Positions 1-397 of a stretch of DNA of 397 bases are shown here, piece after piece. Numbering within the stretch: position 1 is the first letter of the stretch; each line of letters starts with the position of its first letter. The position numbers and the translations under genes were made by a program. The notes beneath the pieces were generated by a model. It saw nothing but the letters and a program-made list of their open reading frames with translations. It was not told where the DNA came from and ran no database searches. Source of the stretch: Escherichia coli (lineage in GTDB: Bacteria; Pseudomonadota; Gammaproteobacteria; Enterobacterales; Enterobacteriaceae); NCBI RefSeq assembly GCF_003334315.1, contig NZ_QOWR01000135.1. One strand, given 5' to 3'.

Positions 1-159
1 CAGCCTGCCGTGACGGTCATACCGGTAAAGATAGTGCGCGTCACGGGCGATACGGTTATCCGGCCACATGCTGAGGGTGCTGTCCGGGTGCAGCTCCGGG
101 TCGGGCAGGCGGTTACCTGCCGGGTCTGTGGCATACGGGATATCAATGCCCAGGTTACA
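1..159 (-). CDS. Rhs-family YD-repeat protein, internal core fragment (partial; 5'-truncated, 3' end continues beyond window position 1); probable orphan rhs cassette or rhs pseudogene
   Basis: Reverse-complement frame with codons 159-157 down to 3-1 is open for 53 codons: [53 protein letters not shown]. It ends in the Rhs/YD-repeat signature Y-R-Y-D-x-x-G-R-L and closely resembles, from memory, an E. coli Rhs core segment (...[40 protein letters not shown]). GC about 63% versus about 29% in the adjacent spacer. The same frame stays open upstream to 186 ([11 protein letters not shown]-rich, no Rhs similarity) and is closed by TAA at 189-187; the open stretch 186-1 has no ATG/GTG/TTG before the Rhs-like sequence (first in-frame ATG is at 69-67). 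Confidence 0.85.
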
Positions 160-321
160 TATAATAATAAGAGCAATTAACTTAATTTATTTGTTTATAA
201 TGCGCTTACTTAATACAAACCATTGAATATACCCTCCTGACAGAAAATAAAGCCATATTATTATCGCCATAATATACTTACTATCAATCCTTACGCCAAT
301 AATGTCTGATACAGTCCCTAT
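160..321. other. AT-rich spacer (about 29% GC) between the Rhs core fragment and IS1
   Basis: Hand count gives 46 G+C in 161-320, against 95 G+C in 1-150. The composition changes abruptly around 150-160, where the Rhs-like sequence ends. Confidence 0.7.
187..321 (-). pseudogene. 3' remnant of an ORF interrupted by IS1 (hypothetical small hydrophobic protein; possibly an Rhs-associated immunity gene)
   Basis: Minus-strand frame starting at 321 is open for 44 codons (IGTVSDIIGVRIDSKYIMAIIIWLYFLSGGYIQWFVLSKRIINK) and stops at TAA 189-187. The other two minus-strand frames hit stops within their first 12 codons (TAG 320-318 and TAA 293-291; TGA 286-284). The open frame abuts the IS1 end at 322, and within IS1 the same frame has a stop at 339-337, so it is not read out of the element. 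Only internal ATG is at 270-268, with no convincing Shine-Dalgarno. Confidence 0.3.
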
Positions 322-344
322 GGTGATGATGCCAACTTACTGAT
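322..344 (+). repeat. IS1 left terminal inverted repeat (IRL, about 23 bp)
   Basis: GGTGATGATGCCAACTTACTGAT at the element boundary. Contains an IHF-like site on the complementary strand (about 333-345, CAACTTACTGATT read as YAANNNNcTGATW, 5/6 in the conserved hexamer); IHF binding within IS1 ends is established knowledge. Confidence 0.8.
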
Positions 345-356
345 TTAGTGTATGAT
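329..356 (+). promoter_or_regulatory. insA promoter (PIRL), partly within IRL: -35-like ATGCCA (329-334), 16-nt spacer, -10 TATGAT (351-356)
   Basis: Hexamers read directly from the sequence; -10 TATGAT is 5/6 to TATAAT. The IS1 transposase promoter is known to overlap IRL and to be repressed by InsA binding there. Exact hexamer assignment is my inference. Confidence 0.45.
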
Positions 357-376
357 GGTGTTTTTGAGGTGCTCCA

Positions 377-397
377 GTGGCTTCTGTTTCTATCAGC
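377..397 (+). CDS. insA: IS1 InsA (transposition regulator / N-terminal part of the InsAB' transposase), first 7 codons only
   Basis: GTG start at 377-379 preceded by Shine-Dalgarno GAGGTG (366-371, 5-nt spacing) and an in-frame TGA at 365-367. Codons GTG GCT TCT GTT TCT ATC AGC give (M)ASVSIS, matching the InsA N-terminus MASVSISCPSC. Frame ends exactly at the window edge. Confidence 0.85.

Follow-up and report, generated by a model that had tools for sequence, protein, structure and literature searches.

Introduction

Rhs toxin/immunity modules have a characteristic layout, in which a low-G+C tip comes after a conserved core and a small open reading frame (ORF) comes next, and additional modules of this kind are found as orphan rhs-CT/rhsI arrays (Poole et al., 2011, PMC3150448; Koskiniemi et al., 2014, PMC3967940). 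As a general rule, each rhs tip is followed by its own immunity ORF (Poole et al., 2011). The rhsC locus of Escherichia coli K-12 MG1655, where the gene order is rhsC, ybfB, ybfO (a pseudogene) and ybfC, resembles such arrays in that the pair rhsC and ybfB is followed by an orphan core fragment that brings along a tip and a small ORF of its own (ybfO/ybfC). The ORF directly behind rhsC was handled as ‘RhsCI’ in an in-silico study of EHEC (PMC7216683), and Jackson et al. (2009) mention neither IS1 nor rhsC. In K-12 this ORF is ybfB (b0702), whose product is annotated as ‘uncharacterized protein YbfB’ (NP_415230.1). Our literature search found no experimental work on ybfB or YbfB, but only mentions in lists and one guess based on map position.

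Small inner-membrane proteins serve as immunity factors in other toxin systems. Those that act against pore-forming colicins, like CdiI of E. coli EC93, are ~100-180 residues long, carry several transmembrane helices, and are encoded next to the toxin gene.

Here we examine a 397-nucleotide stretch of E. coli DNA (contig NZ_QOWR01000135.1), hereafter called the window. A preliminary description, made from the letters alone, had proposed that positions 187-321 belong to a gene disrupted by IS1, which might be an Rhs immunity gene.

Results and discussion

The window carries the 3´ end of ybfB

Read along the minus strand, the window consists of the left end of an IS1 element (397..322), an open frame (321..187), an AT-rich spacer, and G+C-rich Rhs core DNA (141..1). 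Positions 1-321 are 100% identical to E. coli K-12 MG1655, including the spacer and the start of ybfO, and a megablast search against 5,426 complete E. coli genomes maps the window to the rhsC locus, where the features under the match are annotated as ‘protein YbfB’, ‘RHS repeat-associated core domain-containing protein’ and ‘IS1 family transposase’. The open frame matches nucleotides 193-327 of K-12 ybfB (codons 65-108 plus the stop codon) at all 135 positions, with the codons at 321..190 and the TAA at 189..187. On the strength of this identity, the segment is the last 44 codons of a known gene, ybfB, cut off by IS1. K-12 has an intact ybfB of 327 nucleotides, whereas the gene in the window is interrupted after codon 64. 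The disruption of a gene by IS1 was thus recognized correctly at the outset, and RefSeq annotates split copies of ybfB in related strains as well.

On the 3´ side of the ybfB tail lies the 5´ end of an orphan Rhs fragment (141..1, minus strand), corresponding to the ybfO/rhsO pseudogene of K-12, which runs past the end of the window. Because window positions 1-141 are identical to rhsC nucleotides 2695-2835 at 139 of 141 positions, and homology to rhsC starts at position 141, we take the orphan core fragment to begin here. In RefSeq, the orphan Rhs coding sequence reaches position 156; its label is ‘RHS repeat-associated core domain-containing protein, missing N-terminus’ in the related genome L001, whereas K-12 lists it as the ybfO pseudogene. 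The neighbor of the ybfB tail on this side is therefore the start of ybfO (1-141 or 1-156, depending on the definition), and rhsC on the 5´ side is seen only in relatives. The AT-rich spacer occupies positions 142..186, from the ybfB stop codon to the onset of rhs-core homology. A gap of 28 bp between the stop codon and the Rhs fragment, as first reported, is approximate; the distance is 30 bp by the RefSeq coding sequence end and 45 bp by DNA homology. Segment 187-321 is 31.1% G+C and segment 157-186 is 16.7% G+C, such that an earlier figure of about 29% is fair for 157-321 (~28.5%), and the Rhs core portion (1..141) reaches 63%.

Minus-strand positions 321..190 translate to IGTVSDIIGVRIDSKYIMAIIIWLYFLSGGYIQWFVLSKRIINK, which comprises 44 sense codons, and the frame also extends 6 codons into IS1 until it meets a TAA at 342..340. 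As originally described, the frame is open from the IS1 junction and both other minus-strand frames are closed by several stop codons each inside 187-321. One of these meets its first stop ~11 codons from the junction, and the other has a stop across the junction and another ~8 codons in. Although the probability of 44 stop-free codons in one given frame of this composition is 0.014, an open run of at least 44 codons appears in one of the six frames in 18% of composition-matched shuffles of the segment, and we therefore discarded ORF statistics as proof of coding. The coding status of the segment rests on identity to a conserved gene, since an open frame of this length could by itself arise by chance.

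These shuffles, together with promoter-like matches in the segment that reflect mere AT-richness, could be taken to mean that the frame is a chance product of AT-rich non-coding DNA. We find this hardly credible, as the frame belongs to an ORF of 108 codons that is present in 2,694 of the 5,426 complete E. coli genomes, with at least 99% identity in 2,686 of them, and full-length protein homologues (53-78% identity) in Salmonella and elsewhere preserve its length, frame and motifs. The alignment of these homologues already refutes a chance frame. Furthermore, 2,659 of the 2,694 carrier genomes have ybfB as one uninterrupted match that spans at least 80% of the gene.

The YbfB protein is a small and very hydrophobic membrane protein of 108 residues, with strong hydrophobic segments centered near residues 13 and 56-64 and a weaker one near residue 91. 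The third, weaker segment falls in the tail encoded by the window, as does a GGY(I/L)QW motif that is conserved in all full-length YbfB homologues. These homologues are few and confined to enterobacteria, and YbfB matches no Pfam or NCBIfam family. By parting the GGY(I/L)QW-containing tail from the first 64 codons, the IS1 insertion most likely abolishes YbfB function.

The insertion joins many others at the rhsC locus

The IS1 boundary at 321|322 proposed in the preliminary description is confirmed by the identity of bases 322-397 to known left ends: all 76 bases agree with the IS1 copy of L010, and 75 of 76 agree with the copies of L001, L002, L003, L011 and L013, which represent the canonical left end. 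The terminal inverted repeat IRL occupies positions 322-344 (plus strand), and the first seven codons of insA (GTG GCT TCT GTT TCT ATC AGC, encoding MASVSIS) occupy positions 377-397. The GTG at window position 377 agrees with the annotation of the IS1 transposase coding sequence from IS1 position 56 in L001. At window position 329 (IS1 position 8) there is an A instead of the canonical C, such that the left repeat is GGTGATGATGCC, whereas GGTGATGCTGCC is present in most copies. This variant repeat recurs in the IS1 copy located at ybfB nucleotide 20 of strain 2018-01-1CC and in three other records.

The closest counterparts of the window are found in ~17 genomes, including NZ_AP022482.1 (STN0717-20, locus L001), for which RefSeq annotates two ybfB pseudogene pieces around an IS1 whose junction lies 1 bp from that of the window. 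These ybfB::IS1 alleles share the gene and the IS1 orientation with the window, and carry rhsC upstream and the orphan Rhs fragment and ybfC downstream. They differ from the window in their target-site duplication, which is CAGTCCCTA rather than the expected AGTCCCTAT, and in having C rather than A at IS1 position 8. The window allele is a separate event from the L001 allele. A search with a 61-nucleotide query showed that the exact junction is absent from the 5,426 complete E. coli genomes, where the nearest junction is the one 1 bp away, and a 35-nucleotide junction pattern had no match among GTDB species-representative genomes or metagenome contigs. The exact junction is thus new to the collections searched, but its kind is the same as that of many others at the locus.

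The preliminary description proposed to test whether removal of IS1 and one copy of its target duplication gives a continuous ORF. When this reconstruction was conducted on relatives L001, L002 and L003, deletion of the 768-bp IS1 together with one of the two 9-bp repeats yielded an intact 327-nucleotide ybfB, which is identical to the K-12 gene in L001 as well as in L003 and differs from it at one position in L002. Among the relatives, IS1 at ybfB is 768 bp long and is flanked by duplications of 8-10 bp, which are perfect 9-bp repeats in L001, L003, L010 and L011, an 8-bp repeat in L013 and a 10-bp repeat in L012. The equivalent insertions in relatives are simple insertions. The duplication in L002 is imperfect, matching at 8 of 9 positions (GTGAAAGTT at 4429-4437 versus GTGAAAGTC at 5206-5214), and its reconstruction has the codon change R25K.

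In the reading that we favor, IS1 inserted between ybfB nucleotides 192 and 193, immediately after codon 64, with its left end toward the 3´ part of the gene. One copy of the expected 9-bp target-site duplication, AGTCCCTAT, would then occupy positions 313..321, and the second copy is expected past the right end of IS1. Codons 1-64, which encode the two strongest hydrophobic segments, are thereby separated from codons 65-108 and presumably still follow rhsC beyond the other end of the element.

Given that the window ends 76 bases into IS1 and the other junction lies outside, the junction might instead have arisen by an IS1-mediated deletion, inversion or recombination event, in which case the 5´ portion of ybfB, possibly along with rhsC, would be absent or elsewhere. 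There are precedents for such rearrangements at the locus (L017, L012 and L019), and some IS1 copies in the rhsC tip do mark larger rearrangements. In L017 (2178-3271), ybfA directly follows IS1 and the body of rhsC is missing, while in L012 (3435-6010) and L019 (2211-3786) the gene upstream of IS1 is annotated as rhsB with its C-terminus missing. For the window we consider a rearrangement quite unlikely, because, of the eight IS1 copies examined here that share the orientation of the window, seven have colinear flanks and duplications of 8-10 bp, the mark of a simple insertion. The eighth copy, that of L002, failed the automated flank check, but it has the duplication matching at 8 of 9 positions, and removal of IS1 restores ybfB. 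Moreover, the nearest neighbor, only 1 bp away, is a clean insertion.

At least 14 different IS1 sites are distributed over ~750 bp spanning the rhsC tip, ybfB and the spacer in complete E. coli genomes (cassette loci L001-L003, L010-L013 and L015-L020). Counted from ybfB nucleotide 1, the sites with IS1 in the orientation seen in the window are -420, -59, 20, 77, 193 (the window), 194, 264 and 292, and those in the opposite orientation are -196, -163, -94, 41, 206 and 332. IS1 favors AT-rich targets, and the many sites in this cassette fit that preference. We also considered a bias in IS1 orientation and dropped it, since the appearance of eight sites all in the same orientation was a search artefact, and a query with the right end of IS1 gave six opposite sites.

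The remnant lacks an evident route to expression

Within the open frame, no ATG, GTG or TTG precedes the ATG at 270..268 (Met82), and a mechanical ORF list therefore gives only an ORF of 27 amino acids (187..270). The frame that reads out of IS1 toward ybfB (window positions 322-345) ends …SWHHHHRDCIRHYWRKD at a stop codon and is not in register with the ybfB tail, because the window has an extra base relative to the L001-type allele, and the transposase gene of IS1 is directed away from the remnant. Given the lack of an early start, the register of the outward IS1 frame and the direction of the transposase gene, it is almost certain that the ybfB remnant yields no meaningful product. Continued expression of the tail was ruled out on the first two of these grounds and by the reading of the promoter-like matches as AT-richness. 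A predicted read-through product of 93 amino acids, joining YbfB residues 1-67 to IS1, is not on record. In L001 (4300-4340), the outward IS1 frame (…SKTPSYTKSVSWQHH) runs in register into the ybfB tail and has been called as a chimeric protein (P0037, 10 member sequences).

Gene context points to YbfB as a probable immunity protein of RhsC

When evaluating whether ybfB might be an Rhs immunity gene, as had been suggested, we noted that every feature of its context fits this proposal. First, in K-12 the ATG of ybfB overlaps the TAA of rhsC by 1 nucleotide (TAATG). Second, ybfB is 31% G+C, like the low-G+C tip of rhsC and unlike the rhs core at 62%. Third, homologues of the RhsC tip (79-83% identity) are followed within 0-3 nucleotides by homologues of YbfB (66% and 53% identity) in four Salmonella loci (L005-L008) and on one metagenome contig (L009), where these modules lie inside orphan Rhs module arrays. 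Overlapping start and stop codons, low G+C content and co-occurrence with a toxin tip together make up a standard signature of polymorphic-toxin immunity genes (Poole et al., 2011). It is therefore well supported by context that YbfB is the putative immunity protein of the RhsC C-terminal toxin. In the Salmonella enterica locus L005, two modules with an RhsC tip and a YbfB-like ORF (4086-4783 and 8683-9413) are found among the orphan Rhs modules, and the first copy of the tip is without its first ~58 residues.

YbfB, whose immunity role is putative, departs from the Rhs toxin/immunity modules used for comparison in being a polytopic membrane protein. Colicin immunity proteins and CdiI of EC93 provide a precedent for membrane-embedded immunity, but we found no sequence relation between these proteins and YbfB. 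Likewise, the RhsC tip is hydrophilic and cysteine-rich, with a structure model like that of papain-like hydrolases, and in this it differs from pore-forming colicins. If YbfB is an immunity protein, it may guard the producer and its siblings against the RhsC tip at the inner membrane.

An alternative is that ybfB is a real gene whose product is an unrelated small membrane passenger or accessory of the Rhs tip cassette and no immunity protein. The absence of a Pfam or NCBIfam family match would be compatible with such a role, rhsC is still intact in several lineages that lack functional ybfB such that YbfB could be dispensable for immunity, and one paper guessed at an osmotic role from the closeness of ybfB to kdp (PMC9976479). 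These points are outweighed by the 1-nucleotide overlap, the shared low G+C content and the invariable pairing with this toxin tip among the orphan modules of Salmonella. Furthermore, the known accessory genes of Rhs systems reside upstream of rhs rather than downstream, where ybfB is located. We thus judge an accessory role to be unlikely, and favor immunity to the RhsC tip as the function of YbfB.

A candidate hydrolase in the RhsC tip

The tip of RhsC comprises 150 residues (~1248-1397; L004 5327-5776) and is cysteine-rich, with at least eight conserved cysteines. H10 and C118 do not vary among 13 tips that share 48-99% identity, and H30 is nearly invariant. A helix (118-133) opens at C118, which is part of the motif ‘NCQDW’, and the order of histidine and cysteine fits permuted papain-like hydrolases of the NlpC/P60 clan. 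An AlphaFold model of the tip (mean pLDDT of 77) resembles permuted papain-like Cys-His hydrolases including YiiX, PLAAT, PPPDE and TseH with modest scores, and Foldseek gives weak matches to PPPDE and YaeF/YiiX, with fold-match Z values no higher than 7. The tip has no Pfam match even at E ≤10, and hence no NlpC/P60-clan profile match, and a search of PDB sequences with a tip profile gave matches confined to the end of the Rhs core. The papain-like fold suggested by the model is a lead rather than a family assignment.

These characteristics suggest the tentative possibility that the rhsC tip and ybfB constitute an uncharacterized toxin/immunity pair, wherein an envelope-acting permuted papain-like Cys-His hydrolase would be blocked by an inner-membrane protein with three hydrophobic segments, and for which natural immunity-minus, toxin-intact strains exist. 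We regard this full scheme as speculative and less likely than not. RhsC begins with MSGKPAARQGD, which we take to be PAAR-like and typical of type VI cargo.

Full-length rhsC persists beside split ybfB

If IS1 had split an immunity gene, then the cognate toxin might be expected to be inactive or absent, as the preliminary description anticipated. This expectation fails in relatives of the window. The L001-type rhsC is an ORF of 1397 codons with no internal stop, whose last 199 residues are identical to K-12, and rhsC is annotated as intact and full length in L002, L010, L013 and L015 as well. In L003 and L016, rhsC is a pseudogene. The full-length copies mean that a strain can lose ybfB and still keep the toxin gene. 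Most simply, the rhsC system would be silent or undelivered in strains with split ybfB. Under these circumstances the loss of YbfB would be tolerated, and insertions would therefore accumulate in this AT-rich DNA.

Taken together, we are highly confident that the window contains the dead 3´ end of ybfB, produced by insertion of IS1. The gene probably codes for the immunity protein of RhsC, and its loss would be tolerated. As a genetic feature this is an ordinary one, namely a known and already annotated gene truncated by IS1, and the finding itself is minor, being a further case of IS1 landing in an AT-rich accessory gene that the cell does not need. The allele nevertheless marks a broken presumed RhsC immunity gene and, with the related alleles, provides natural material on YbfB immunity and on the expression and delivery of rhsC. 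If our reading is true, immunity-minus, toxin-intact strains would either reveal a silent system or serve for testing the toxin/immunity pair.

Public protein sets hold further YbfB chimeras (P0019, P0028, P0029, P0039 and P0041), in which the portion outside YbfB does not stem from IS1 read-through. They suggest that other elements have inserted, or that YbfB has been fused to further orphan modules, one of them with PF15631.
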